Below, piece after piece: positions 1,774-20,715 of a DNA stretch of 64,000 nt; position 1 is the stretch's first letter; each line of letters starts with the position of its first letter. This stretch comes from Polyangiales bacterium (GTDB lineage Bacteria > Myxococcota_A > Polyangia > Polyangiales > Ga0077539): the NCBI GenBank assembly GCA_041389825.1, contig JAWKRC010000007.1:61093-125092 (forward strand), given 5' to 3'. The position numbers and the translations under genes were made by a program. The notes below the pieces were generated by a model, which was given only the letters and a program-made list of their open reading frames with translations, was not told the DNA's origin and made no database searches.

Positions 1774-2318
1774 GCGAGGGCGACCGCGCCGCCGCGGTGG
1801 TCGAGCGACTTCGCGCCGAGGGAGAGGGCCTCTACGCGGTGCTCGACGCCGCCCGCGACGACCACGTGCTCGCGGCCATCTCCCGCTCGGGGGAGCGCTT
1901 CCGATCGCTCTACGAGGGCTGGCAGGGCGACGGCCTCGCCGACGTGGCCCCGTACCTCGTCGAGCTCCCCTCGGGCAGCGCCTTCGTCGATCGGCTGGTG
2001 CGCGAGGGCTGGGGCGAGTCGTGGGGGATCTTCCTCGTGACGCCCGAGGATTTCTTCTCCGTGCGACGTCACCTCCGGCGCTTCCTCCGCGTGGTCGACC
2101 ACGACGGCAAGCGCTTGCTCTTCCGCTACTACGACCCGCGGGTGATGCGCGCGTGGCTGCCCACCTGCACGCCCGACGAGACCCGCGCCTTCTTCGGGAG
2201 CGCCTCGGCCTTCATCACCGAGGGCCGCCGCGGAGCGACCTTCTTGCGCTTCACGCCTGGGCCCGAGGGGGCCGAGGTCGAGACCTTCCCACTGCCTGAC
2301 GAGAGCCCCGAGCCATGA
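1770..2318 (+). CDS. DUF4123-family protein (T6SS effector adaptor/chaperone, Tap/Tec-like).
   Basis: Carries LYAVLDAARD...ADVAPYLVEL...WG.FLVT...HLRRFLRV...LLFRYYDPRVMRAWLP...FFG signatures. GTG 1770 overlaps the PAAR stop. The stop overlaps the next ATG (ATGA at 2315-2318). Confidence 0.75.
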   Translation: MSEGDRAAAVVERLRAEGEGLYAVLDAARDDHVLAAISRSGERFRSLYEGWQGDGLADVAPYLVELPSGSAFVDRLVREGWGESWGIFLVTPEDFFSVRRHLRRFLRVVDHDGKRLLFRYYDPRVMRAWLPTCTPDETRAFFGSASAFITEGRRGATFLRFTPGPEGAEVETFPLPDESPEP

Positions 2319-3205
2319 CCGCGCTGTCGCTCCGCCTGACCATCCTCACCGGCCCGCACTCGGGCCACGTCGTCGACGTGCCCGCGGGCGCGCCCCGCAC
2401 CTTCGGCCGCGGCGCCGCGAGCGACGTGCAGCTCCTCGACGAGGCGATGTCCGAGGTGCACTTCGCGCTGCACCTCGACGACGCGGGCGCGGTGCAGGTG
2501 CGCGACCTCTCGGGCGGAGGCACCACGCTCAACGACCGCGGCGTGACCGACGGCGCCGCGCGCGACGGCGACCACCTCAGCGCGGGCGCGACGCGCTTCT
2601 CCATCGCGGTGGTGTCCTCCGACGGCCCCGTGGTCGAAGACGTCGACGAGCTCTCGCCCGAGCTGGTCGCCGCGGCGATGCAGCGGAGCGCGCCCGACTG
2701 CGCGCGCTGGGCGCTCCAGTCCGAAGACGGCTCGCACTACGCGCTGGTCGACGTGGCGAACGACCCCGAGCTCCTTCGCCTCTTCGAGGCGGGCGGCGAG
2801 AGCTACTGCGCCCTCGACGAGACCCGCGACCCCGACGACCTCGGCGAGACCGCCCCCGTGCTCGCCTACCTCCCCGTGGGGACGGAGTTCCTCGCGCAGG
2901 TCTTCGACGAGTGCTGGTCGATGGGCAACGCGGTCTTCTTCGCGAGCGACCGGCCCTTCATCGAGGTCTACGACCACGTCATCCGCCAGCTCACCTGGGA
3001 GGAGGACGGCCGCATCGGGGGCCTGCGCTTCTGGCTCCCGCGGGTGCTCGCGGCGCAGCTCCCGGGCACCGACGCCGAGCGCGCGGCGGCCTTCTTCGGT
3101 CCGGTGCGGGCGTTCCTCGTCGAGAGCGAAGACGGCCGCGAGGCGCTGCGCTTCTCGCTAGAGGGCGGGGCCGTGGTGCAGCGGCGGATCGCGCTGCAGC
3201 TCTGA
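2315..3205 (+). CDS. FHA domain fused to a second DUF4123 domain.
   Basis: N-terminal FHA signature (RTFGRG..SDVQL...HF.L......V.DLSGGGTTLN). The C-terminal half repeats the DUF4123 pattern (HYALVDVANDPELL...APVLAYLPVG...LRFWLPRVLAAQLP...FFGPVRAF). Confidence 0.75.
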   Translation: MTALSLRLTILTGPHSGHVVDVPAGAPRTFGRGAASDVQLLDEAMSEVHFALHLDDAGAVQVRDLSGGGTTLNDRGVTDGAARDGDHLSAGATRFSIAVVSSDGPVVEDVDELSPELVAAAMQRSAPDCARWALQSEDGSHYALVDVANDPELLRLFEAGGESYCALDETRDPDDLGETAPVLAYLPVGTEFLAQVFDECWSMGNAVFFASDRPFIEVYDHVIRQLTWEEDGRIGGLRFWLPRVLAAQLPGTDAERAAAFFGPVRAFLVESEDGREALRFSLEGGAVVQRRIALQL

Positions 3206-7553: not shown

Positions 7554-8009
7554 CTACTCGCAGTTGTCGCAGCGGCCCTTCACCTGGATCTCGACGTCGC
7601 CCCCGCGCAGCGACCGCGGCGCGCCGCGGGTGGCGTGGACCTCGATGATCTCCTCGGGAAGGCAGGTGACGTCGCCGCACGCGTCGCAGACGAAGTGGGG
7701 GTGAGGCTCGTTGCCGTGCGCGTCGCTCGCCTCGCCCTTCACCTCGAAGCGCCACACGTGGTCGCCCAGGTCGGTGCGACGGAGCAGCCCCGCGTCGGTG
7801 AGGTCGATGAGGTTGCGGTAGATCGTCGCCCGGTCCCACCCGTCGGGGGCGAGCGCCTCGAGAGCCTCCGGGTGGCTCACCGGCGAGGTCGCGCGCTCGA
7901 GGTGCTCGAGCACCGCCACGCGCGGGGCCGTGACGCGCAGGCCCGCCGCGCGGATCCGTTCTCTCAAGGCCCCGACCTCGGTGACCCTCTGCCTCGACGC
8001 GCGCGTCAT
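7554..8009 (-). CDS. Fur-family metalloregulator, probably Zur.
   Basis: 151 aa with a winged-helix N-terminus. Two CxxC pairs are present (CDACGDVTC ... CDNC). It sits directly upstream of, and co-directional with, the ZIP-like transporter. Confidence 0.85.
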   Translation of the reverse strand: MTRASRQRVTEVGALRERIRAAGLRVTAPRVAVLEHLERATSPVSHPEALEALAPDGWDRATIYRNLIDLTDAGLLRRTDLGDHVWRFEVKGEASDAHGNEPHPHFVCDACGDVTCLPEEIIEVHATRGAPRSLRGGDVEIQVKGRCDNCE

Positions 8010-8050
8010 GCCTCGGGCTGTACCTTCCCCGTGGGCTTATTGCAATCGAG
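8010..8050. promoter_or_regulatory. AT-rich island upstream of the Fur-family gene. It contains the 8-bp palindrome ATTGCAAT and is a candidate operator/promoter element.
   Basis: It is the only AT-rich stretch in a 72% GC neighbourhood. The palindrome lies at about 8039-8046. The intergenic region is only 41 nt. Confidence 0.25.
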
Positions 8051-9433
8051 TCACAGTTGAAACCGCCGTCGCCGAAGCCCGATGGCGAGGCCCACCGCGA
8101 CCAGGCTCAGCCACGGCCCGACGCGCGTAGCGCGGGGCGTCGCGCGGCAGTCGCACGACGACGTTGCTGGGGGCGCCACCACGCCCGCGTCGCGCGCGCC
8201 CACGTCGATCACCGCGGGGACGTCTTCCGCGGGAGCGAGGTCGGGGGTCGGGGCGACGTCCGTCGGCGCGGTGTCGTCCTCCACCGCGGCGTCGCGCAGG
8301 CCCGCGTCGGGCGGGGGCTCGGGGTCGGTGAGCATCGACTGGAGCAGCGGCCACCGCTCGACGCAGATCGCGGCGCCCTCGTCGCGCGAGGCGCACTCCG
8401 GCGGGCCGGCGACCTCGCTGAAGCGCAGGACGGGCGTGAAGGTCGCGCCGCCGTCCATCGACCGACCGAGCGCCCAGGGCTGCGAGATCCAGTCGGTGCA
8501 GGCCCACAGCGCGCCCGCGTGCTGCCGCAGGCAGAGCGTGGGGAGCGGGTTCACGCGCTCGAAGCTCTCTCCGCCGTCGGTGGAGCGGTACAGGCCCTCG
8601 GCCTGCGAGCCGTACCAGACCGTGCGACCGTCGTCGCTGATGGCGAAGCCGAGCATCGCGTCGCGGGTGGTGGCGACGCGGTGAAAGCTCGCGCCGCCGT
8701 CGGTGGAGCGCAGGAGGTCTGAGCCGAAGCCCACCACCGCGCGCACGAAGAGGGCGTCGGGGTTCGTCGGGTCGACGCCGCTCACGTAGGCGCCGTCTCC
8801 GAGCAGAGACTCGGGCACCGTGAGCGCGCGCACGGTGTCTCCGCCGTCGTCGCTGCGCAGGAGCCTCGGGACGCGCGTGGTGTCTTCGACCGCCGAGAGG
8901 TACACGCGACGCGCGTCGCTCGGCGCGACCTCGACGGTGGCGAAGCGCATCCCGGCGAGGGGCGCGCCCACGCGCGAGAGCTCTAGGTCGACGCCGCCGC
9001 GCAGCACGTACGAGGGAGAGCCCGCGGTGCTCTCGACGCCATAGAGCGTGTCTCCCGAGGGCGTCGCGGCGAGGTCGATGACGTCGTGGTCGGCCGTCGC
9101 GGCCTGCCGGCGCACCGCGCACCCGTCGGTGAAGGAGTGCACGCCGCTCTCGAAGGAGAGCGCCACGCGGCCCTCGGCGGTGACCTCGACGGCGGGGTCG
9201 ACCATCAGCCCCGGCACGTAGGGGAAGAACATCGAGTCTTCGCAGACCCAGTGGAAGGTCGCCCCCGCGTCGCGGCTCACGAGCAGGCCGAAGGTCGTTC
9301 GCAGCACCACCACGTCGGAGCGCGCGCCGGGCCCGAGCACCACCTGCTGCGCGAAGGGGAAGCGCCCGTTCGCGCGAGCCCTCACCGGGAGGAGCGCGAG
9401 GCCGAGGGCGAGCGCCACGGAACGCAGGGTCAT
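8051..9433 (-). CDS. Exported BNR/Ycf48-like repeat protein with a MYXO-CTERM sorting signal.
   Basis: A signal peptide is present. Repeated S.DGG.(S/T)(F/V) motifs occur (SDDGGDTV, STDGGASF, STDGGESF, SMDGGATF). The C-terminus is SSCDCRATPRATRVGPWLSLVAVGLAIGLRRRR. Confidence 0.8.
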   Translation of the reverse strand: MTLRSVALALGLALLPVRARANGRFPFAQQVVLGPGARSDVVVLRTTFGLLVSRDAGATFHWVCEDSMFFPYVPGLMVDPAVEVTAEGRVALSFESGVHSFTDGCAVRRQAATADHDVIDLAATPSGDTLYGVESTAGSPSYVLRGGVDLELSRVGAPLAGMRFATVEVAPSDARRVYLSAVEDTTRVPRLLRSDDGGDTVRALTVPESLLGDGAYVSGVDPTNPDALFVRAVVGFGSDLLRSTDGGASFHRVATTRDAMLGFAISDDGRTVWYGSQAEGLYRSTDGGESFERVNPLPTLCLRQHAGALWACTDWISQPWALGRSMDGGATFTPVLRFSEVAGPPECASRDEGAAICVERWPLLQSMLTDPEPPPDAGLRDAAVEDDTAPTDVAPTPDLAPAEDVPAVIDVGARDAGVVAPPATSSCDCRATPRATRVGPWLSLVAVGLAIGLRRRRFQL

Positions 9434-9513: not shown

Positions 9514-10296
9514 ATGGAAGCGCCCGCGCACGAGCTCGTTGGGGAGGGGCCCACGGTGGTCCTCCTTCACTCGTTCCCCCTCGACCGCGGGATGTGGACG
9601 CGGCAGCTCGGCGCGCTCTCGGCCGCGGGCTTCAGGGTCGTCGCGCCCGACCTCCCGGGCTTCGGCGCGACCCCCACGCCCACGGGAGACGCGCCCTCCC
9701 TCGACGCCTACGTCGCCTCGGTGGTCGCGCTCCTCGACGCGATCGACGCGCGACGTCCGCTCGTGCTCGGGCTCTCGCTCGGCGGCTACGTCGCCCTTCG
9801 CCTCGCGGCGCTCCACCCCGACCGCGTGGGGGCCCTCGTCCTCGCCGACACGCGCGCGGCGGCAGACAACCCCGAGGTGCGCGCGAGCCGCGTGGTGAAC
9901 CTCTCGCTGGTGCGCTCGAAGGGGGCGGGCGCGCTGATCCGCAAGATGCTCCCGATGGTGCTCTCGGGTTCGGCCCCCGAGTCGGTGCAGTCCGCGGTGA
10001 CCGCTCTCGGTGAGAAGCAGTCCGCCGAGGGGGTGTCGTACGCGCTCCTCGCGATGCGCGACCGCCACGACGGCACCGACGCGCTGCCCTCGATCAAGGC
10101 CCCGACGCTCTGCCTCGTGGGAGACGGCGACAAGGTCACGCCCCCCGACGAGATGCGCGCGATGGCCGACGCGATCCCCGGCGCGCGCTACGTCGAGCTC
10201 GCCGGGGCGGGGCACCTGTCGAACTTCGACGCGCCCGAGGGCTTCGACCGCGAGGTCGTTCGGTTCGCGAACGACCACCGCGCAGACTTCACCTGA
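9514..10296 (+). CDS. Alpha/beta hydrolase fold protein (3-oxoadipate enol-lactonase-like).
   Basis: HSFPLD ... GLSLGGYVAL nucleophile elbow (GxSxG). 260 aa. Confidence 0.85.
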   Translation: MEAPAHELVGEGPTVVLLHSFPLDRGMWTRQLGALSAAGFRVVAPDLPGFGATPTPTGDAPSLDAYVASVVALLDAIDARRPLVLGLSLGGYVALRLAALHPDRVGALVLADTRAAADNPEVRASRVVNLSLVRSKGAGALIRKMLPMVLSGSAPESVQSAVTALGEKQSAEGVSYALLAMRDRHDGTDALPSIKAPTLCLVGDGDKVTPPDEMRAMADAIPGARYVELAGAGHLSNFDAPEGFDREVVRFANDHRADFT

Positions 10297-11620
10297 TCGG
10301 GCGGGCGCGGTCGGCGATGAAGCGCTCGAGGGCCGCTCGCTCCTCGGACGTGATCCCGTAGAGCGCGCACACCCGCGCCTCCACCGCGGCGACGCGCTCC
10401 GGCGTCGGGCCGTCGATGGTGAGGGACCGCACCATCTCCGTGACGCCGTCGCGGAGGGAGTCGTCGGGAGGCGCGGGCAGCGCGCGGAGGTGCGCGACCT
10501 TCACCTGCGGGAAGGCGGCCTGACGTCCGTCGCGGCGAGAGGCGAGGTGCAGCGCGCGGAGGGGAGCGCTGTTGAGGCAGGCCACGGCGAGCGCGGGGTC
10601 GGCCCCGTCGAGGGCGAAGCCCGCGAGGAGCGAGTTGCGGAAGGGCGACGGGTCACGGTGGAGCGCCGCGATGGGGAAGGCCGCCGTCTGCCGCACCACG
10701 AAGGCCACGGCGCGCCACGCCTCGGGAGGGCGCATCCGCGCGCGCGCGGCGCGCAGCGCGACGGGGTCGGGGTCGAGCCACCGACGCGCGGGGCCGACGC
10801 GGTACGGGGTCACGTCCTTTCCCTCGCGTAAGGGGACGGTGTGGCGCTCCGAGGGCGCGTCGGCGATCAGCGCGCGCACCGCGGGGCTGGTCTGCACGCC
10901 CACGTCGCTGAAGGTCTCAGGCGCGAAGCGAGGGAGGGCCGCGAGGCGCGCGAGGCACCGCGGGGGTTCGACCACCACGGCCTCGACGCCCGCGCGTCGG
11001 CGCTCGCGCAGCGTCCACGGTCGCGGGTCGGGGGGCGCGTCGCGGCGCGCCCCGAGCATGGCGAAGCAGGGCTGCACCACACCCTCGAAGACGTCGGGGC
11101 CGAACTCCTCCATGGGCTCGGCCAGCGCGACCCGGGCGCTCACCGCGCGACGCACGGGCGCGTAGCCGTCGAGGTCGGCCATCGCCGACGGGAGCAGCAA
11201 GGCCACCACGCCGCCCGGCGTGAGGAGCGCGGTGGCGCGGTCGGCGAAGGCCCCGTGCAGCGTGGGGTATCCGCCGAAGCCCTCGTAGCGCGCGCGCAGC
11301 GCTTCGCGGCGCGCGAGGGAGATGGGGCGCGAGGCGCGACCCGCGTAGGCGACCCAGGGGGGGTTGCCCACCACGAGGTCGGCCGGGTCGAGCGCGAGGT
11401 CGAGGGCGTCGCCCACCGTCACCGCAGAGAGCGCCGCGGGCGGGGGCTCCCGCGCGCCCGAGGCGAGCCAGAGCGAGAGGCGCGCGGCGTGGGCGGCCTC
11501 GGGGTCGAGGTCGACGCCGCGGAGGCGCGCGAGGGCATCGTTCGTAGACCCAACGATCTCCGCGAGGGCGCGCATCGCCGCGACGAGGAAGACGCCCGCG
11601 CCGCAGGCCGGGTCGAGCAC
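10289..11620 (-). CDS. N6-adenine DNA methyltransferase (gamma class, Eco57I/TaqI-like). The true N-terminus extends upstream to about 11850 but has no canonical start codon.
   Basis: Motif I is VLDPACGAGVFL. Motif IV is GNPPW. Motif X (GRWFTPRTIAAHLV) lies upstream of the first GTG (11620), in an open frame with high GC3 that runs to a stop at about 11933 without ATG/GTG/TTG. Confidence 0.7.
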   Translation of the reverse strand: MLDPACGAGVFLVAAMRALAEIVGSTNDALARLRGVDLDPEAAHAARLSLWLASGAREPPPAALSAVTVGDALDLALDPADLVVGNPPWVAYAGRASRPISLARREALRARYEGFGGYPTLHGAFADRATALLTPGGVVALLLPSAMADLDGYAPVRRAVSARVALAEPMEEFGPDVFEGVVQPCFAMLGARRDAPPDPRPWTLRERRRAGVEAVVVEPPRCLARLAALPRFAPETFSDVGVQTSPAVRALIADAPSERHTVPLREGKDVTPYRVGPARRWLDPDPVALRAARARMRPPEAWRAVAFVVRQTAAFPIAALHRDPSPFRNSLLAGFALDGADPALAVACLNSAPLRALHLASRRDGRQAAFPQVKVAHLRALPAPPDDSLRDGVTEMVRSLTIDGPTPERVAAVEARVCALYGITSEERAALERFIADRARPIR

Positions 11621-11971: not shown

Positions 11972-12277
11972 TCACGGGGCGCGGCGCTGCTTGCGCTGGA
12001 GCGAGGCGATGCGGGCGTCGATGGCGTCGAGGCGCGTGGTGCGAAAGGCCCGGTCGAGCAGGCGAGAGCCGATGAAGAGGAAGGCCACCGCGAAGAGGAA
12101 GCCCCACTGCCGCGGCAGGCCGACGGCTTCTTGCAGGAGCACGCCGAGGCCGAGGCCCAGGCCGAAGGCGGCGAGGGTCACGGGGATGAGCACGTTGGTG
12201 CGGTGGGCCTCCCACCAGGTGATGCGCTTGAAGAGGCGCTCGCGCTCGTCGCGCAGGCGGGAGAGTTCGTCGTCCAT
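11972..12277 (-). CDS. Small membrane protein (N-terminal coiled segment plus two TM helices).
   Basis: 101 aa. Coding-like codon usage. Hydrophobic segments are VLIPVTLAAFGLGLGLGVLL and FLFAVAFLFIG. Confidence 0.55.
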   Translation of the reverse strand: MDDELSRLRDERERLFKRITWWEAHRTNVLIPVTLAAFGLGLGLGVLLQEAVGLPRQWGFLFAVAFLFIGSRLLDRAFRTTRLDAIDARIASLQRKQRRAP

Positions 12278-12323
12278 CGCGTCGTGGCCTTCGGGGCCGC
12301 GAGCATAGGCGCGCTCGGGGGGA

Positions 12324-13634
12324 TCAGCGAGCGCGGTCGATGCACCGCCGGGTGCTCTGCCCCGCGGCGTTGGCGAGGGCCCCCGCGGGCCACGCGAGCA
12401 CGAAGTTGAAGCACATCTCGTCTTCGGTGCGCTCGCCGAAGAAGACCGTCGCGCTGCTGACGTTGTCGTAGCGGCAGACCGTGCGGAGGCGGTCTCCGGG
12501 CATGATGACCAGGTCGGAGGGTCGGCTCACCTGCGCGTCGAAGGAGTAGTCGGTGACGTCGGTGAGCGTGTCCATCCGGGCGGCGGAGCCTCCGCGGTGG
12601 ACCTCGCTGCGCAGGGCCGTCCCGTTGCGGTGCATGTGCGCGGTCGACCCGAGCACGTGGATGGGCTCGGTGGCGGCGGGCGTGCACCAGCCCTCGGTCT
12701 CGTAGCCCGTCGACCGCGGAGGGATCGCGATGTTGAGCGTGCCGAGCCAGTGGACGGCCGCGGTGTGCGGGCGGGGCGCGTCGGTGGTGCACATCTCGAT
12801 GCCGCTCGCGTCGTCGGCCGCGTCGAGGGTGTTGTTCCAGTAGTGGGTCTGGAGGATGAACCACTCGCCCTCGCCGGGGAGCTCGAGGCCCACGTCGGAG
12901 GGGAGCACCGTGCCCTGGTTGCCGGGCGCCCATCCCGCGATGAAGCGCGCGTCGCGGGGCATGTTGCCGTCGCAGTCGAAGACCTCTCCCGCGGCGGGGC
13001 GAGACGCGGTGGAGAAGAGGATGAGGTGGTGCAGCACCCTGGCGTTGTCGACGCGCGCGGCGAAGGCCGTGGCCTGCTGCGCGCCGCGGAAGGGCGACTG
13101 GAACGCGAAGCAGCGGTTGAGGTTCCCCGCGGCGCCGGGGACGGTGTAGCGGTCGGCGACGGTGGGGCCGTGCGCGAGGAAGGCGCGGCGCTCGCTCGGC
13201 GCGCAGGGGAGCCGGTCGGCGGGGCTCTCGACCGCGTCGGGCCCCGTCATGCTCCCGCAGTCGGAGCCCGTACAGCCGGGCGCGCCCGCGGCGATCCAGC
13301 GGTCGAAGGTCGCGAGGTCAGCCTCGGACAAGCGCGCGGGCGGCATCGGCCGCACGGGGTCGTGGACGCGCTCGCCCATGAGGTTCCACACCTGCCGGGC
13401 GGGGGCGCTCGCGGCGGGACGTCGCGTGTCGTCCCATCGGGCGAGCGACATCGGCGCGCCGTAGCGCGGCGTGGCCGCGTGGCACGAGACGCAGTTGCCC
13501 TCGATGATCCGCGCGATCTCGAGCGGGTACGACATCCCGCTGCCGGGGTCGGTCGGCGCCGCGCCGTCGCCCGAGCAGCCCAGGGTGGTCGACGCCGCGA
13601 GCACGATCGCGGCGCGGAGGAAATCGTTTCGCAT
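12324..13634 (-). CDS. Lipoprotein combining a c-type heme motif with a copper type II ascorbate-dependent monooxygenase-like (PHM/DBH-like) domain.
   Basis: The signal is MRNDFLRAAIVLAASTTLGC (lipobox). A CVSCH (CxxCH) motif is present. The CuH-like site is HH...(63 aa)...H (VLHHLILF ... LQTHYW). The CuM-like site is HMH...(about 75 aa)...M in a DEMCF context (cf. PHM DEMCN). Confidence 0.7.
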   Translation of the reverse strand: MRNDFLRAAIVLAASTTLGCSGDGAAPTDPGSGMSYPLEIARIIEGNCVSCHAATPRYGAPMSLARWDDTRRPAASAPARQVWNLMGERVHDPVRPMPPARLSEADLATFDRWIAAGAPGCTGSDCGSMTGPDAVESPADRLPCAPSERRAFLAHGPTVADRYTVPGAAGNLNRCFAFQSPFRGAQQATAFAARVDNARVLHHLILFSTASRPAAGEVFDCDGNMPRDARFIAGWAPGNQGTVLPSDVGLELPGEGEWFILQTHYWNNTLDAADDASGIEMCTTDAPRPHTAAVHWLGTLNIAIPPRSTGYETEGWCTPAATEPIHVLGSTAHMHRNGTALRSEVHRGGSAARMDTLTDVTDYSFDAQVSRPSDLVIMPGDRLRTVCRYDNVSSATVFFGERTEDEMCFNFVLAWPAGALANAAGQSTRRCIDRAR

Positions 13635-13660
13635 CGTCGGCCTCATGGGTGAAGGGGGCG

Positions 13661-14320
13661 TCATTGCACGCGGCGAAGGTCGAAGATCAGCGCGGCCTGG
13701 AGCGGGGCCGCGCCGAGGTAGACGAAGAGCCGCGCGCGGTCGGCCGCGTCGCGGGAGAAGGCGAAGCCCGAGGGGCCGGCCATCGCGCCCATGCCGAGGG
13801 TGCCGCTCATCGTGGTGCACTCGGGGGTGAGGGTGAGGCGCTCGCCCTGCACGGTGAACGCGCCGCGGCCGCCGAGGCGCGAGGGCCGCGGCACGGGCCC
13901 GGCCATGACGGTGTTCACGCGGATCACCAGGTCGGAGAGGAGCCGATAGCGACCGGCGGAGAAGTCTCCCCACGCGACGCCGCTGAGCTCGGAGCCGCTC
14001 TCGTCGAGCTGACCGCGCGCGACCTCGGGGAACCACAGGGTCGCCCCGTCGGCCACCCAGCGCCCCTCGGGGTCGCCGCCCGAGGGCGTGGGGATCACGG
14101 CGCCTGCGTCTCCGCCCGCGATGCGGACCGCGCCCGTGAAGGTGGGCGTGGTGGGCGGATCGCCGAGGTCGCACGCGGCGGCGTCGGCGCCCGCGTCGGT
14201 CTCGGCCGCGACGTCGCTCGCGACGTCAGTGAGGGCGCCCGCGTCGGAGGGCGCGTTGGAGTCGTCGCCGCACGCGCCGAGGAGGAGCGCGAGAGGAACC
14301 CACCGAACGGATCGCGTCAC
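13661..14320 (-). CDS. Lipoprotein of unknown function, directly upstream of the Cu-monooxygenase-like gene.
   Basis: The GTG start gives VTRSVRWVPLALLLGACGDD (lipobox). About 220 aa. The upstream part of the ORF is Arg-rich junk. Confidence 0.55.
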   Translation of the reverse strand: MTRSVRWVPLALLLGACGDDSNAPSDAGALTDVASDVAAETDAGADAAACDLGDPPTTPTFTGAVRIAGGDAGAVIPTPSGGDPEGRWVADGATLWFPEVARGQLDESGSELSGVAWGDFSAGRYRLLSDLVIRVNTVMAGPVPRPSRLGGRGAFTVQGERLTLTPECTTMSGTLGMGAMAGPSGFAFSRDAADRARLFVYLGAAPLQAALIFDLRRVQ

Positions 14321-15484: not shown

Positions 15485-18400
15485 TCACCGCCGCGAAGAG
15501 GGCCATCTCGGCCGCGTCGAAGCCGCCGTCGCGCGGCGCAGCGACGCGAGACCGGCCTCGCTCCTCCCCTGCTGGAGCGCGACCCCCGCGCGCAGGAGCT
15601 CGGCGAGCGGCGCGGCCCACGCGAGGGTGCTCTCGTCGATGACCTTCGCGTCGTCGAGCGCGCGCGCGTGGAGCGACGGCGCGTCGAGCCCCGACGCGCG
15701 GGAGGCCACCGCAGCGAGCGCCGCGCGGCCACGGAGCTGGTGGAGCTCGACCCGCGCGCACTCCAGCCGGAGGAGCTGGGCCGACCCGAGGCCCTCCCAC
15801 TCGGCGTCGACGGCGCGGAGCGCGCGGGCGCCCTCTCCGTCGTAGAGCTCGGCCTGCGTGGCGGCGACGAGGTGCTGGTAGCGCTGGAGGTTCCACGCGC
15901 CGGGGGGCCAGGTGGCCTTCACCCGCTCGGCGAGGGCGCGCCACTCGTCGGCGCGGTCGAGGGCGAGCCAGCGCAGCGCCTGCTCGCCGAGCACGTAGCC
16001 GCCCGCGGCGAAGAGGTCTTCGCGGTCTTCAGCCTCGCGCAGCGCGCGCGTGAGGCGCGACGAGAGCTCGGTGAGCCGCCCCATGAGCGCGAGCGACGAG
16101 AGGGCGTAGATCTCCGATGTGGCGACCTCCCACGCGACGCCGCGGCACGCGCTGCGCCACAGGTCCGCGGCTGCGACGCACTCGTCGTGGGCCGAGCGCC
16201 AGCGCGACTCGAACCACGCCGTCGTCCCCCGCGCCATGCGCGCCCACGCGCGGTCGTAGACCGAGCCCGTGCGCGACGCCACGCCGTCGACCACGTCGAG
16301 GATCTTTCGCGCGCGACCGCGGAAGAACGCTCCGCCCACCGAGGCCTCGGAGGTGGCCTCGTACCCGAGGGCGCGCACCGCGCGGGAGGGGTCGCCGATC
16401 TCAAGGGTCGCGGCGAGGTGCTGCACGCCGAGCGCGTCGGCGAAGGCAGGCTGCACCATCGAGTAGCTCACGACCCCCGTCCACATCGCGTCGAGCCGTC
16501 GCAGCGCTCGCCCGACCCGCCACCCCCGCGAGCGCCGCGCCGCGCGGCGTCGAGGGGAGCGACACCCCCGCCGCGTCGAGCACCTCGCGCATCACCCGCA
16601 TCCCCTCGACGTAGCGGCCCGAGCACACGAAGCGCTCCGCCGCGCGACGTCGCAGGTCCATCACCATCGGGTCCGCGGGGCGGGTCTGCGCGAGCGCGGC
16701 GGCGGCCTCCATGAACGCCTGGGCGGCCTCTCCGCCCCTGCCCGCGGAGGTGAGCGCCTCGGCGAGCCGCGTGAGCACCTCGTCGCGGCGGACCGACTTG
16801 TGCGGCGCGCGCAGCGCCACGCGGTAGAGCGAGGCCGCGTGGTCGAAGGCTAGGGCCTCGGCCGCCCTCTCGGCGGCGGGCAGCGCGTAGCGGGCCGCGC
16901 GGTCGTCGTCGCCCGCGCCCACGAGGTGCAGCACCAGCGCGTCGAGGTCGTCGCTCTTCTGGTCGAGCAGGGCGTCGGCGAGACGTCGGTGCGCGTCGCG
17001 GCGCACGGCCTCTCCGCCCGCGGCGAGGATCGCCTCGCGCACGCGGTCGTGCCGGGTCTCGACCGCGGGCTGACCGTCGACGGGCGACAGGCGCAGGAGC
17101 CCCGCGCCCACGAGCCGGGTGACCTCGCGACGTCCCCACTCGCCCATGCTCGCCGCGCGCAGGAGCGTGCGCCGCTCGACGGCCGCGCCCGCGACGGCGG
17201 CGAGCGTGAGGAGCCGCTGCGCGTCGGGGTCGAGGGCGTCGATGCGCCGGCGCACCACGTCGCCGAGCCGAGGGGCGGTCGCGCCGCCGGACTCTTGAAG
17301 GTCTTGCGCGAGCTGGAGCACGAAGAAGGGCGAGCCGCCCGACTCGCGCGCGACGAGCTCGGCGAGCCTGCGGGCCTCGTCGGTGTCAGCGCCGAGGGCC
17401 CTCGCCGCGAGCGCCTCGGCCTCGCGCGGAGGGAGCTGCCCCACCCGCAGCTCGCGCCGGCCCGGGAGCGCGTCGAGGGCCTTGAGGAGGGCGGAGTCGT
17501 CGCGGCGCTCGCTCTGGTAGCTCACCACGAGGAGCAGCGGCGGGGCGTCGTCGCGCGCGAAGAGCTCCTTCGCGAGCGCGGCGCTGTCGGCGTCGGCCCA
17601 CTGGGCGTCGTCGATCCACACCACGAGCGGGGCCGCGCGGGCGACGGAGGCGAGCACGGCGCGCAGGGCCTCGAAGCCGACCTGACGCAGCGCGCGCGAG
17701 TCGACCTCGTCGGGGCGCGGCGGCACCGCCGTCGCGGGCAGCGCGCGAGAGAGCACGGGGAACACCCGGAGCAGCGCCTGCCGGTCGGGCTCGGCGAGGG
17801 CCTCGATGGCCGAGGGCTCGCGCACGAGATCGGCTGAGCGCGTCGACCACGCCGTCGAAGGCCCGGTACGCGACGGACTCCTGCGGCAGGCAGCGGCCGC
17901 GGAGCACCAGCGAGGGCGGCGCGCGCTCGACGCTGGTGATGAAGCGGCGCACGAGCTCGGTCTTGCCCGAGCCCGACACGCCCTCGACGCACACGAGCGT
18001 GAAGGCGCCCTCGCGCGCCGCGGGTAGGCCGCGTCGAGGGCCGCGAGCTCGTCGGCGCGGCCCACGAAGGGGGCTCGGCCGAGGGTCTTCGGGGAGACGC
18101 GTCGGCCGGGGGCGCGTCACGCAGACGGCGCAGCACCTCGCGCGTCGGGTCGGCGCGCGGGGTCGGGGTGCAGGAGGGCGCGTACCAGCTCGTCGTAGCG
18201 GCGCGGGAGCGCGGGGTGCATCTCGGCGGGCGAGGCGAAGCGCGCGGCGCGCTGGAGCGCGAGCACCTCGTCGCGCGTGCCGGTGAAGGGGAGGGCGCCC
18301 GTGAGGGCCTCGTAGAGGACGACGCCGAGGGCGTACCAGTCCGACGCGGGGGTGAGCGCGAGGCCCTGGGCCTGCTCGGGGGACATGTACACGCCCGTGC

Positions 18401-18924
18401 CCACGGGGGCCGAGGCCGAGCCCGTGGTGTCGTTGACGTCCCAGCGGGCGGCGAGGCCGAAGTCGAGGAGCACGACGCGGCCGTCGTGGGAGACCATCAC
18501 GTTCGAGGGCTTGATGTCGCGGTGGAGCCTCCCCGCGGCGTGCACCGCGGCGATGCCCGCGACGAGCTGCGGCAGCGCCGCGTCAAGGCGCGCCACGCCC
18601 GCGCGAGAAGGCCCGTGCCCCCGTCGCGCCGTCGTCGGACCACAGGTGGTCGAGGAGGCCTACGCCGTCGACGACCTCCATGGTGAAGAACGCGCTCGCG
18701 CCGTCGACGAAGAGCTCGTGCAGCTCGACGAGGTTCGGGTGGAGGATCCCCGCGAGCGCGCGGAACTCCTCCTTCAGGTGGTACAGGTCGTCGGAGTCGA
18801 CGCGGCGCAGGGTCTTCAGCGCGACGTCGCGCTGCATCTCCTCGTCGCGCACGCGGTACACGACGCCCATCCCGCCCTTGCCGAGGCACTCGATGACGCG
18901 GAATCGTCGGGTACTGGCGAGCAC
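15485..18924 (-). pseudogene. Ser/Thr kinase–STAND (AAA) ATPase–TPR regulator, about 1150 aa. It is disrupted by at least 4 frameshifts (about 18600, 18125, 17850 and 16440). This is either decay or sequence error.
   Basis: The kinase N-lobe (GKGGMGVVYRV..ALK) is in one frame. The catalytic loop and C-lobe ([15 protein letters not shown]) are in another. The P-loop (GVSGSGKTE) is in a third. Walker B (LVVWIDDAQWAD) plus the helical/TPR body is in a fourth. The C-terminal TPR region is in a fifth. Confidence 0.5.
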
Positions 18925-18961
18925 GCGGGGCGGCGATGGTCCGCCGTCGCCCCGCGGCGGG

Positions 18962-19309
18962 TCAAGACGCTCCGTCGCCCGCGGCGCGCGTCGCGGCCTT
19001 GCGCGGCCACGACACGATCGACCGCGAGGCGGGGTGCTCGCTCAACCGCGACGCGAGCGCGTCTCCCCTCGCCTGGATCTCTTCGTAGAGCGAGGCCACG
19101 GCCTCGCCCGTGCGCGCCGCGCGCTCGCGCGTCTCGCGGTCGGCCTCGAGCTCGGCGCGCTCCATCGCGTCGAGCTCGGCCCTCGCCGCCTCGGCCTCGG
19201 CCAGCGCCGTCGTCAGCGCCGCCCGCGTCGAGGCGAGCGCGGCGTCGGCCGACGCGCGGGCCGACAGCGCCGTGCGCGCGGCGCTCGCGAGGCAGCCCAG
19301 CATCACCAT
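18962..19309 (-). CDS. Small coiled-coil protein. Its start overlaps the stop of the upstream kinase (ATGGTGA).
   Basis: 115 aa, Ala/Glu/Arg-rich heptads. The ATG at 19309 overlaps the TGA of the 19303..20715 kinase. Confidence 0.4.
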   Translation of the reverse strand: MVMLGCLASAARTALSARASADAALASTRAALTTALAEAEAARAELDAMERAELEADRETRERAARTGEAVASLYEEIQARGDALASRLSEHPASRSIVSWPRKAATRAAGDGAS

Positions 19310-20715
19310 GCGCTCCAGCGTCGCGTCGGTGGCGGCGCGGGGTTGTCGGCGGGCGGGCCGAGGTCGTGCCACGCGAGGCTCACCTCGTTGCGCGCGCGCA
19401 CCTCGTCGGCGAGCGCGGCGCGGGCGGCCTCTTCGAGCGAGCGCGCGCGCGCGTCGAGGCGCTCGGCCTCGGCCTCCGCGGCGGAGCGGGCGTGCAGCAG
19501 GTGCTCGCGGCGAGACTGCGCGCGGCGCTCGTGCTCGACGAGTGCGTTGAGGGCGACGCGGCGCTCGTGCTCGACGGCCTCGAGGCGCGCGATGGCCGCC
19601 GAGAGGGCGTCGAAGTCTCCGCGGAGCGAGGGAGGGGCCTGGTCGCGCCACGCGGCGGCGAGGGCCACCTCGAAGGTCTTGCGCTGCTCGCGGAGCGTCG
19701 CGAGCGAGGGCGGCAGGTCTTCGGGGTAGGGCCGCGTGGGGCGCTCGTCGGCGCCGTCGTCGTGCGGCTCGACGGCGGGGCGCGGGCGCGTGCCGCTGGA
19801 GTCTCCGAGGAGCGCGAGGAGCTCATAGCGCAGCGCCCCCGCGTCGGCGGCGCGCTCGCCGGGCGTCTTCGAGAGGAGCCGGTCGATGAGCGCGTCGAGC
19901 TCGGCGGGCACCGCGGGGTTGAGCGAGCGCGCCCGCGGCGGGGGCACGTCGCGGTGCTGGAGCACGAGCTGGGTGACGGTGCCGTTGAAGGGCAGCGCGC
20001 CGGTGACCAGCTCGAAGAGCATCACGCCGAGGGAGTAGAGGTCCGTCGCGGGGGTGCAGGGCTCGCCGCGGGCGAGCTCGGGGGCGAGGTACTCGGGCGT
20101 GCCCAGGGCCTCGTTGGGGCCGGTGAGGCGCGCCTCGAATTTGATGTGCGCGATGCCGAAGTCGACGACCTTCACCTCGCGCCGCCCGTCGGGCGCCACG
20201 CACACGAAGACGTTCTCGGGCTTGATGTCTCGGTGGACGATCTCGCGCGCGTGGGCGCGCTCGAGCGCGGCGGCGACGGGGGCGACCATCTCGATGGCCT
20301 CGCGCACGGGCAGCGCGCCCTGCTGCACGCGCGCGGCGAGGCTCTCGCCCTCCAAGAGCTCCATCACCAAGAAGACCCGCACGCCCTCTTCGGCGACGTC
20401 GAAGACGTCGACGATGTTCGGGTGCTTGAGCAGGTTCGCGGCCTGCGCCTCGCGGATGAAGCGCTGGCGCATCACCGGGTCGCGGGTGAGCTCCGACGCG
20501 AGGAGCTTCACGGCCACGTCGCGGCGCAGGAGCAGGTGCCGCGCGCGGTACACCGAGCCCATGCCGCCGACGCCGATGCGCTTGAGGAGCTTGTAGCGAC
20601 CCGCGAGGGTGCGGCCCACCAGCGGGTCGACGACGTCGACGAGGAGCGCTCCGTCAGAGGGGCAGGTCGAGATCTCTTCGTCGTACCGGCCGTTGCACCG
20701 GGGGCAGCGCTTCAT
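19303..20715 (-). CDS. Ser/Thr protein kinase with an N-terminal zinc-ribbon and a C-terminal coiled coil.
   Basis: CPRCNGRY...CPSDG ribbon. GVGGMGSVYRA, VAVK, HRDIKPEN, DFG, TPEYLAPE. Intact 470 aa. Confidence 0.85.
   Translation of the reverse strand: MKRCPRCNGRYDEEISTCPSDGALLVDVVDPLVGRTLAGRYKLLKRIGVGGMGSVYRARHLLLRRDVAVKLLASELTRDPVMRQRFIREAQAANLLKHPNIVDVFDVAEEGVRVFLVMELLEGESLAARVQQGALPVREAIEMVAPVAAALERAHAREIVHRDIKPENVFVCVAPDGRREVKVVDFGIAHIKFEARLTGPNEALGTPEYLAPELARGEPCTPATDLYSLGVMLFELVTGALPFNGTVTQLVLQHRDVPPPRARSLNPAVPAELDALIDRLLSKTPGERAADAGALRYELLALLGDSSGTRPRPAVEPHDDGADERPTRPYPEDLPPSLATLREQRKTFEVALAAAWRDQAPPSLRGDFDALSAAIARLEAVEHERRVALNALVEHERRAQSRREHLLHARSAAEAEAERLDARARSLEEAARAALADEVRARNEVSLAWHDLGPPADNPAPPPTRRWSAW

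Follow-up and report, generated by a model that had tools for sequence, protein, structure and literature searches.

A PHM/DBH-type two-copper monooxygenase homologue with a built-in cytochrome c domain and a candidate lipoprotein partner from a Polyangiales bacterium

The textbook examples of uncoupled two-copper monooxygenases are PHM and DBH, known from animals as the makers of amidated peptide hormones and of noradrenaline. Their ultimate electron source in animals is cytochrome b561, a transmembrane b-type cytochrome which regenerates soluble ascorbate. In the cytochrome c-tethered copper nitrite reductases (e.g. that of Ralstonia pickettii) a class I cytochrome is fused to a periplasmic copper enzyme, and electrons pass from the built-in cytochrome to an electron-transfer copper and from there to the catalytic copper. 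A similar design is proposed here for a protein of the PHM/DBH superfamily. It is encoded in a 64 kb stretch of DNA from a Polyangiales bacterium (~74% G+C, referred to as the window) by a gene for 436 residues at positions 12324..13634 of the minus strand. This protein, called the enzyme below, is a predicted lipoprotein which combines a class I cytochrome c domain with the two copper domains of PHM, as judged from Pfam, PDB sequence matches and a structural model. The gene directly upstream (13661..14320, minus strand) encodes a second lipoprotein of 219 residues, referred to as X. We consider it probable that this locus specifies a two-gene extracytoplasmic oxidation system, composed of a lipid-anchored haem c/two-copper monooxygenase and its partner X.

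An NCBI metagenome-assembled genome (MAG) of Polyangiales contains the enzyme in identical form (100%) as hypothetical protein R3A52_05300. As read from the sequence, residues 1–20 (13575..13634, minus strand) comprise a signal peptide and a lipobox (...AASTTLGC20), in agreement with the original prediction for this locus. The lipobox cysteine, Cys20, is kept in 48 of 49 homologues that were aligned, the most distant of which share 25% identity with the enzyme. Eight cysteines are conserved in the enzyme, including the counterpart of the C293-C315 pair of PHM. Because of the conserved lipobox and these cysteines, we predict an extracytoplasmic location. The export signal is thus present in the enzyme itself; the genes for haem maturation lie outside the window.

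The original prediction had also read a PHM/DBH-type copper signature from the translated gene. Both domains of this class are detected by their Pfam profiles above the gathering scores. Cu2_monooxygen (PF01082, 2.2e-10) covers residues 164–270 (12825..13145, minus strand), the putative CuH domain, and Cu2_monoox_C (PF03712, 4.8e-17) covers residues 292–419 (12378..12761, minus strand), the putative CuM domain. The predicted CuH ligands are the adjacent His202 and His203 (13026..13031) together with His264 (12843..12845), which align with H107, H108 and H172 of PHM. For CuM they are His333 and His335 of an HMH motif (residues 333–335, 12630..12638) and Met407 within the motif DEMCF (12414..12416), corresponding to H242, H244 and M314 of PHM; all these codons are on the minus strand. 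The distance from His203 to His264 is 61 residues and that from His335 to Met407 is 72 residues (64 and 70 in PHM), so that the spacings given originally, 63 and about 75, were approximately right. A phmmer search against the PDB sequences yielded human DBH (6.4e-16) and rat PHM (1e-14), with all six ligands placed on their PHM/DBH counterparts. These six residues are invariant in all 49 aligned homologues.

An AlphaFold2 model built on the same homologues has a mean predicted local distance difference test score (pLDDT) of 90.9 and a predicted template modelling score (pTM) of 0.84. Two consecutive β-sandwich domains of the PHM fold are present, which is a membership feature of the class defined by PF01082 and PF03712. 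A Foldseek search with the model found DBH at 1.5e-20 and PHM with TM-scores of up to 0.77 (normalised to the target), and none of the refuting checks named originally went against the interpretation. By sequence homology the protein is a member of the PHM/DBH superfamily. Binding of two copper ions and O2-dependent C-H hydroxylation can be predicted for it from the conserved ligands.

Residues 34 to 122 (approximately; 13269..13535, minus strand) were assigned to a class I cytochrome c domain on the basis of a family profile and the modelled fold. The haem c attachment motif C48-V-S-C51-H52 (13479..13493, minus strand), had been pointed out originally as a c-type haem site. No other CxxCH occurs when the window is translated in all six frames (~128,000 residues). 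Cys48, Cys51 and the pair Met97-Pro98 are invariant in the aligned homologues. His52 is found in 48 of the 49, and these 48 keep the complete CxxCH motif. The only exception, homologue P0046, reads CxxCR and has also lost the lipobox cysteine. It appears to be the enzyme of the related locus L023 (JAXLYL010000004.1), in which the X gene is truncated. The histidine, the lipobox cysteine and an intact X appear to have been lost together, and this looks like a decaying locus.

Met97 (13344..13346, minus strand; motif P-M-P-P) is the likely sixth (axial) haem ligand. It is invariant in the alignments A1, A2 and A5, which include variants with tandem cytochrome domains. Met62 (in GAPM) was considered as well. 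Since close relatives keep it and the tandem-domain variants do not, Met97 is favoured. A profile made from 29 N-terminal domains matched cytochrome c6 (3DR0) over the whole domain with 6.9e-8. In the alignment, the CxxCH motif coincides with the site of haem attachment in cytochrome c6, and Met97-Pro with its axial-Met "MP". PF13442 was matched by all 29 domains scanned (best 8e-7), and the modelled domain is folded like PccH and FoxE, which are monohaem cytochromes. According to this family evidence, which is stronger than the score of the single protein, the class I cytochrome c domain is real, and covalent attachment of haem c would be expected from its motif.

The partner lipoprotein X is 100% identical to R3A52_05305 of the NCBI Polyangiales MAG. 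It consists of a lipobox with its cysteine (...LLLGAC), a low-complexity linker rich in Asp and Ala, and a β-rich domain of ~170 residues in which a pair of cysteines is conserved, along with the motifs PTPSGGDPxGxW and GTGW. X has no match among the Pfam, NCBIfam or PDB sequence families. Homologue searches with the single sequence and with a profile returned only X itself and one fragment, for which the Asp/Ala-rich linker is the probable reason. Orthologues were recovered from related loci by tblastn and iterated hidden Markov models; all 19 separately encoded orthologues that were aligned keep the lipobox.

In a scan of one genome per species we identified 230 relatives of the enzyme, and the counts of loci given here rest on the best 80. 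X is located directly upstream of the enzyme gene and on the same strand in 24 of these 80 loci, which cover most of the loci nearest to the window. In the window, the stop codon of X (TGA) overlaps an in-frame alternative start of the enzyme gene in the tetranucleotide ATGA (13661..13664, minus strand; read from the sequence). Of 21 related loci, at least 8 likewise show a stop/start overlap of 4 nt (ATGA, GTGA or TTGA) at the junction of both genes. Overlaps of this kind are typical of translational coupling, which is therefore possible for X and the enzyme. The enzyme could indeed start at position 13664 instead: the alternative ATG (13664..13662) would add 10 residues, which affect the signal peptide only. 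A longer reading frame of 616 residues (12324..14174) was rejected as a gene model. It is an out-of-frame upstream extension which overlaps the X gene, and both the NCBI call and the homologues back the protein of 436 residues. In four independent sequences (from the distant loci L070, L074 and L075, and P0131) a domain homologous to X is fused to the C-terminus of the enzyme. Taken together, the recurring gene order, the apparent coupling and the fusions speak for a physical cooperation of X with the enzyme as its partner.

Two other roles of X were considered and discarded. A function as copper chaperone is not supported, because the Met-rich stretch of the window copy (TTMSGTLGMGAMAG) is not conserved and the orthologues share no conserved His, Met or extra Cys. 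Since neither His nor Met is conserved, X is without an obvious metal site. X is also not a candidate substrate of PHM type, as none of the orthologues ends in Gly.

The relatives of the enzyme provide evidence of a large radiation of this family in Myxococcota. Nearly all of the best 80 of the 230 relatives come from Myxococcota or carry older names of this group, with few other labels; Polyangiales, Nannocystaceae, Sandaracinaceae, Labilithrix and Minicystis rosea are represented. Many MAGs contain two to four paralogues. Cultured carriers include Sandaracinus amylolyticus (DB32_004618). A full-length profile searched against 1.84 billion cluster representatives (50% identity) gave 1,555 matches at E ≤ 1e-30 and 8,387 at E ≤ 1e-10, and for most of the best 150 the alignment starts with the cytochrome domain. 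In the source databases such proteins are annotated as "hypothetical protein", "mono/diheme cytochrome c family protein" or "Copper type II ascorbate-dependent monooxygenase". Besides being retained, the cytochrome domain is also multiplied: P0087, P0088 and P0090 contain three tandem copies and P0169 contains four, always N-terminal to the PHM-like core. This is the pattern expected of a wire for electron input. A subfamily (P0069, P0072–P0076, P0079, P0128 and P0142) carries a short conserved C-terminal tail containing cysteines, which ends with ...RC..(D)..S(V/I)L(A/Q)SCNG(L/Y)AD....

The substrate-binding site was compared with that of PHM, in which R240, Y318 and N316 bind the C-terminal carboxylate and the backbone of the peptidyl-glycine substrate. 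The counterparts of R240, N316 and Y318 in the enzyme are Thr331, located in a variable column of the alignment, Phe409 and Phe411. Phe411 is nearly invariant, and Phe409 is invariant among the closer homologues. Since the carboxylate-binding residues are replaced by Thr (variable) and Phe, the substrate should differ from that of PHM. Judged by these residues, the enzyme is not a peptidyl-glycine hydroxylase; it is predicted to be PHM-like in its chemistry, but not in its substrate. A hydrophobic substrate is plausible.

By analogy with PHM and DBH we propose the following mechanism. The enzyme would be exported and lipid-anchored at Cys20, and would take up one covalent haem c with His52 and Met97 as axial ligands as well as two mononuclear coppers, CuH and CuM. 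The haem domain would then receive single electrons from the periplasmic respiratory chain, either from a soluble or membrane cytochrome c or from bc1. In the next step the electrons would be transferred from the haem to CuH within one polypeptide, in the role which ascorbate plays for PHM and DBH. Ascorbate is, to our knowledge, not to be expected in the periplasm of myxobacteria, and it is for this reason that haem c is proposed to replace it. CuH would relay the electrons to CuM, where O2 would be activated and a C-H bond of the substrate hydroxylated. X would act as a co-translated, obligatory partner that binds the enzyme and, most probably, presents a hydrophobic ligand or the substrate. 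Alternatively, X could serve as an additional module for electron input or anchoring. What the data show directly is the identity of the domains and their fold, the conservation of the ligands, the way in which the cytochrome domain is kept and multiplied across the family, and the partnership with X.

Several observations weigh against this proposal. We infer the occupancy of the cofactor sites (haem attachment as well as copper loading), the direction of electron flow, the O2 chemistry and the role of X. The whole-chain pTM of 0.84 only suggests a fixed packing of the cytochrome domain and does not give the distance from haem to CuH. No conserved cytochrome donor, copper chaperone or substrate-related gene was observed among the neighbours scanned. 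In about two thirds of the related loci there is no X gene within 8 kb, so that X is not needed by every member of the family. The likeness of X to a lipocalin/YceI-like (calycin) barrel comes from a model with a pLDDT of 46, without a sequence match. Finally, the window protein by itself falls short of the Pfam gathering score for Cytochrome_CBB3, with 0.069 when searched at full length and 0.0037 when the domain is taken alone. A cytochrome profile, suggested originally as a check, is matched by all 29 domains scanned (PF13442).

This low score and the fact that the model data do not give the haem-to-CuH distance would also be in line with a cytochrome that is not the donor, but a structural, sensory (O2, NO or redox) or targeting module, with a small-molecule reductant reducing CuH. 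We regard this as very unlikely. Ligation by His and Met is typical of electron carriers and not of gas sensors, and a tandem duplication to three or four copies fits a wire. Moreover, we know of no periplasmic ascorbate-like reductant in these bacteria. The cytochrome could also feed a copper pair that works without an organic substrate, as a terminal or detoxifying reductase of O2, H2O2, superoxide, NO or nitrite. Such an enzyme would have the architecture of the cytochrome c-tethered copper nitrite reductases; the lack of conserved substrate-related genes nearby, the loss of the substrate-binding residues of PHM and the resemblance of the several-haem variants to respiratory electron wires point in the same direction. 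It is nevertheless unlikely, since the His2Met set of CuM and the whole substrate cleft are kept, with Phe409 and Phe411 (near-)invariant and suggestive of a hydrophobic site. A dedicated, sometimes fused partner resembling a ligand-binding barrel would be hard to explain, and the extensive paralogy within single genomes is better accounted for by substrate diversification.

Electrons might also flow in the opposite direction, from an amine, phenol or metal ion oxidised at the copper core to haem c and into the respiratory chain, similar to quinohaemoprotein dehydrogenases or the iron oxidase FoxE. We give this a small probability. The ligand sets of CuH and CuM are unchanged, the characterised members of the PHM/DBH/TBM fold (TBM, tyramine beta-monooxygenase) consume two electrons and O2, and none of them is known to us as a dehydrogenase. 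That the CxxCH and copper motifs are relics or chance occurrences, and the protein a pseudo-enzyme or a binding protein like the PNGase F-fold proteins, appears extremely improbable. All 49 sequences keep both haem cysteines, Met97 and each of the six copper ligands, a single CxxCH occurs in the ~128,000 translated residues of the window, and the sole exception in the family belongs to what looks like a decaying locus. A monooxygenase supplied with electrons by its own haem c is thus the reading that we prefer, and, within the reach of sequence analysis and structure prediction, the overall interpretation given originally is supported.

The genes of X, the enzyme and a small membrane protein of 101 residues are arranged head to tail on the minus strand. 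The gene of the latter (11972..12277, minus strand), with two predicted membrane helices in its product, is located 47 bp downstream of the enzyme gene. Both flanking genes had been noted originally, and the three genes had been taken for an operon. This is well supported for the pair of X and the enzyme. The small membrane protein is a real gene, found at the same position in five close relatives (L004–L007 and L010; E from 1e-13 to 4e-21). The closest locus, L001, lacks it, as do all loci further away, and its product has no match in the sequence-family searches; its link to the enzyme system is weak. At 74% G+C, no usable result came from a scan for promoters and terminators.

No Pfam family is enriched in the 54 same-strand genes that immediately adjoin the related genes. 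An all-against-all clustering of the open reading frames (ORFs) of the loci recovered only the enzyme, X, antisense shadows and the Ser/Thr kinases that are ubiquitous in myxobacteria. On this basis a biosynthetic context, or one of ribosomally synthesised and post-translationally modified peptides (RiPPs), was rejected. A PAL/NHL domain was found neither in the enzyme nor in the neighbours scanned. An alpha/beta hydrolase, a BNR protein and a FUR regulator encoded downstream were rejected as linked genes, because their synteny is limited to the closest relatives and is therefore uninformative. The latter two adjoin each other in the window (7554..9433, minus strand): the gene of the FUR-family regulator covers 7554..8036 and that of a secreted BNR/Asp-box repeat protein 8051..9433. 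The BNR gene is syntenic with the enzyme locus in L004, L007 and L010, the FUR gene in L004 only. The BNR/Asp-box protein belongs to a propeller family other than PAL/NHL. Between the genes of the small membrane protein and the alpha/beta hydrolase lies an ORF similar to Eco57I/MmeI/N6-DNA-methylases (10289..11620, minus strand). It starts at the methyltransferase motif I (DPACGAG) and looks N-terminally truncated, and the otherwise syntenic loci L004, L007 and L010 have no such ORF. It may therefore be an insertion or what remains of a restriction-modification system.

Additional features were observed elsewhere in the window. An ORF of 818 residues (30773..33229, minus strand) matches the Pfam families MVP_shoulder (1.2e-28) and Vault_3 (2.3e-7); its product looks like a bacterial protein homologous to the major vault protein of eukaryotes. 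A protein encoded at 2300..3205 (plus strand) combines FHA/Yop-YscD_cpl and DUF4123 domains, the latter usually being an adaptor domain of type VI secretion. A cluster at 16401..20715 (minus strand) comprises two ORFs for Ser/Thr protein kinases, 18117..18659 and 19303..20715, together with one for an AAA_16 ATPase (16401..18065). The ATPase ORF shares about 85 bp with the ORF before it (15485..16486). More kinase paralogues are found at other positions of the window.

Full-text searches turned up no publication that describes a bacterial enzyme of the PHM/DBH type or the fusion of such an enzyme with cytochrome c, the searched literature being incomplete. A 2025 review on the mechanism of PHM and DBH does not contain the term "prokaryot" and mentions bacteria once, in connection with RiPP antibiotics (PMC12164859). 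The "PHM domain" cited for myxothiazol was discarded as a precedent; it is an assembly-line monooxygenase domain of another family (PMC9396620). What was known already are the sequences in public databases together with their annotation at the domain level. The new elements are the combination of a two-copper core of PHM/DBH type with a cytochrome c domain in one protein, a lipoprotein partner that was previously unrecognised, and the evidence for the large radiation in Myxococcota.

How electrons cross the gap of roughly 11 Å between CuH and CuM in PHM and DBH, and whether a motion from an open to a closed form is needed, is still debated (PMC12164859). If our proposal is correct, a bacterial homologue bearing haem c would allow single electrons to be injected and followed optically without ascorbate and in a bacterial host, and the debated step could be tested directly. 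Such a homologue would, in addition, show by what means bacteria drive the O2-dependent hydroxylation of C-H bonds outside the cytoplasm without NAD(P)H or ascorbate. The chemistry of the enzyme is a reasoned extrapolation. The system would offer a tractable handle on this long-standing question of electron transfer in copper enzymes. The family comprises thousands of members with a previously unrecognised partner protein and bears on the evolutionary origin of the animal enzymes that amidate peptides and form noradrenaline. A wider picture is possible, although we hold it to be somewhat doubtful. The haem c-wired copper centre would carry out a respiratory-powered, ascorbate-independent hydroxylation in the cell envelope, with the lipocalin/YceI-like lipoprotein handing over a hydrophobic molecule or quinol-derived electrons, and the radiation in Myxococcota could represent the prokaryotic stock of eukaryotic PHM and DBH.

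Compared with PHM, the core of PAM (PDB-entries 1PHM, 1OPM and 1SDW), the enzyme has the fold and the copper sites in common at an identity of only about 20–22%. It adds an N-terminal lipoprotein signal, the cytochrome c domain and a dedicated lipoprotein partner, and its predicted electron donor is haem c instead of ascorbate. DBH, tyramine beta-monooxygenase and MOXD1 (PDB-entry 4ZEL) also share the fold and the copper sites. According to the Pfam scan, the DOMON and dimerisation domains of this group are missing in the enzyme, and the N-terminus is occupied by the cytochrome c domain instead. The accessory X domain is either separate or C-terminal in the family of the enzyme, and the Tyr of DBH at the position of Phe411 is not kept.

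With regard to electron supply, we propose the cytochrome c-tethered copper nitrite reductases as the closest functional analogue. They differ in being cupredoxin trimers, in contrast to the β-sandwiches of the PHM fold, in the C-terminal position of their cytochrome, and in reducing nitrite rather than carrying out an O2-dependent hydroxylation. A second analogue, in which electrons are likewise delivered outside the cell, is the supply of lytic polysaccharide monooxygenases (LPMOs) by cytochromes, such as the cytochrome domain of cellobiose dehydrogenase or bacterial Cbp2D and Cbp2E. The latter two carry YceI-like (X158) and cytochrome domains (PDB-entry 2X34); a YceI likeness of X is tentative. 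Unlike the enzyme, LPMOs contain a single copper in a histidine brace, have an unrelated fold and receive electrons from a cytochrome on a separate protein. Compared with the shuttle of cytochrome b561 and ascorbate in animals, the cytochrome of the enzyme is of the c-type and part of the same chain as the copper core, and no diffusible carrier would be needed.

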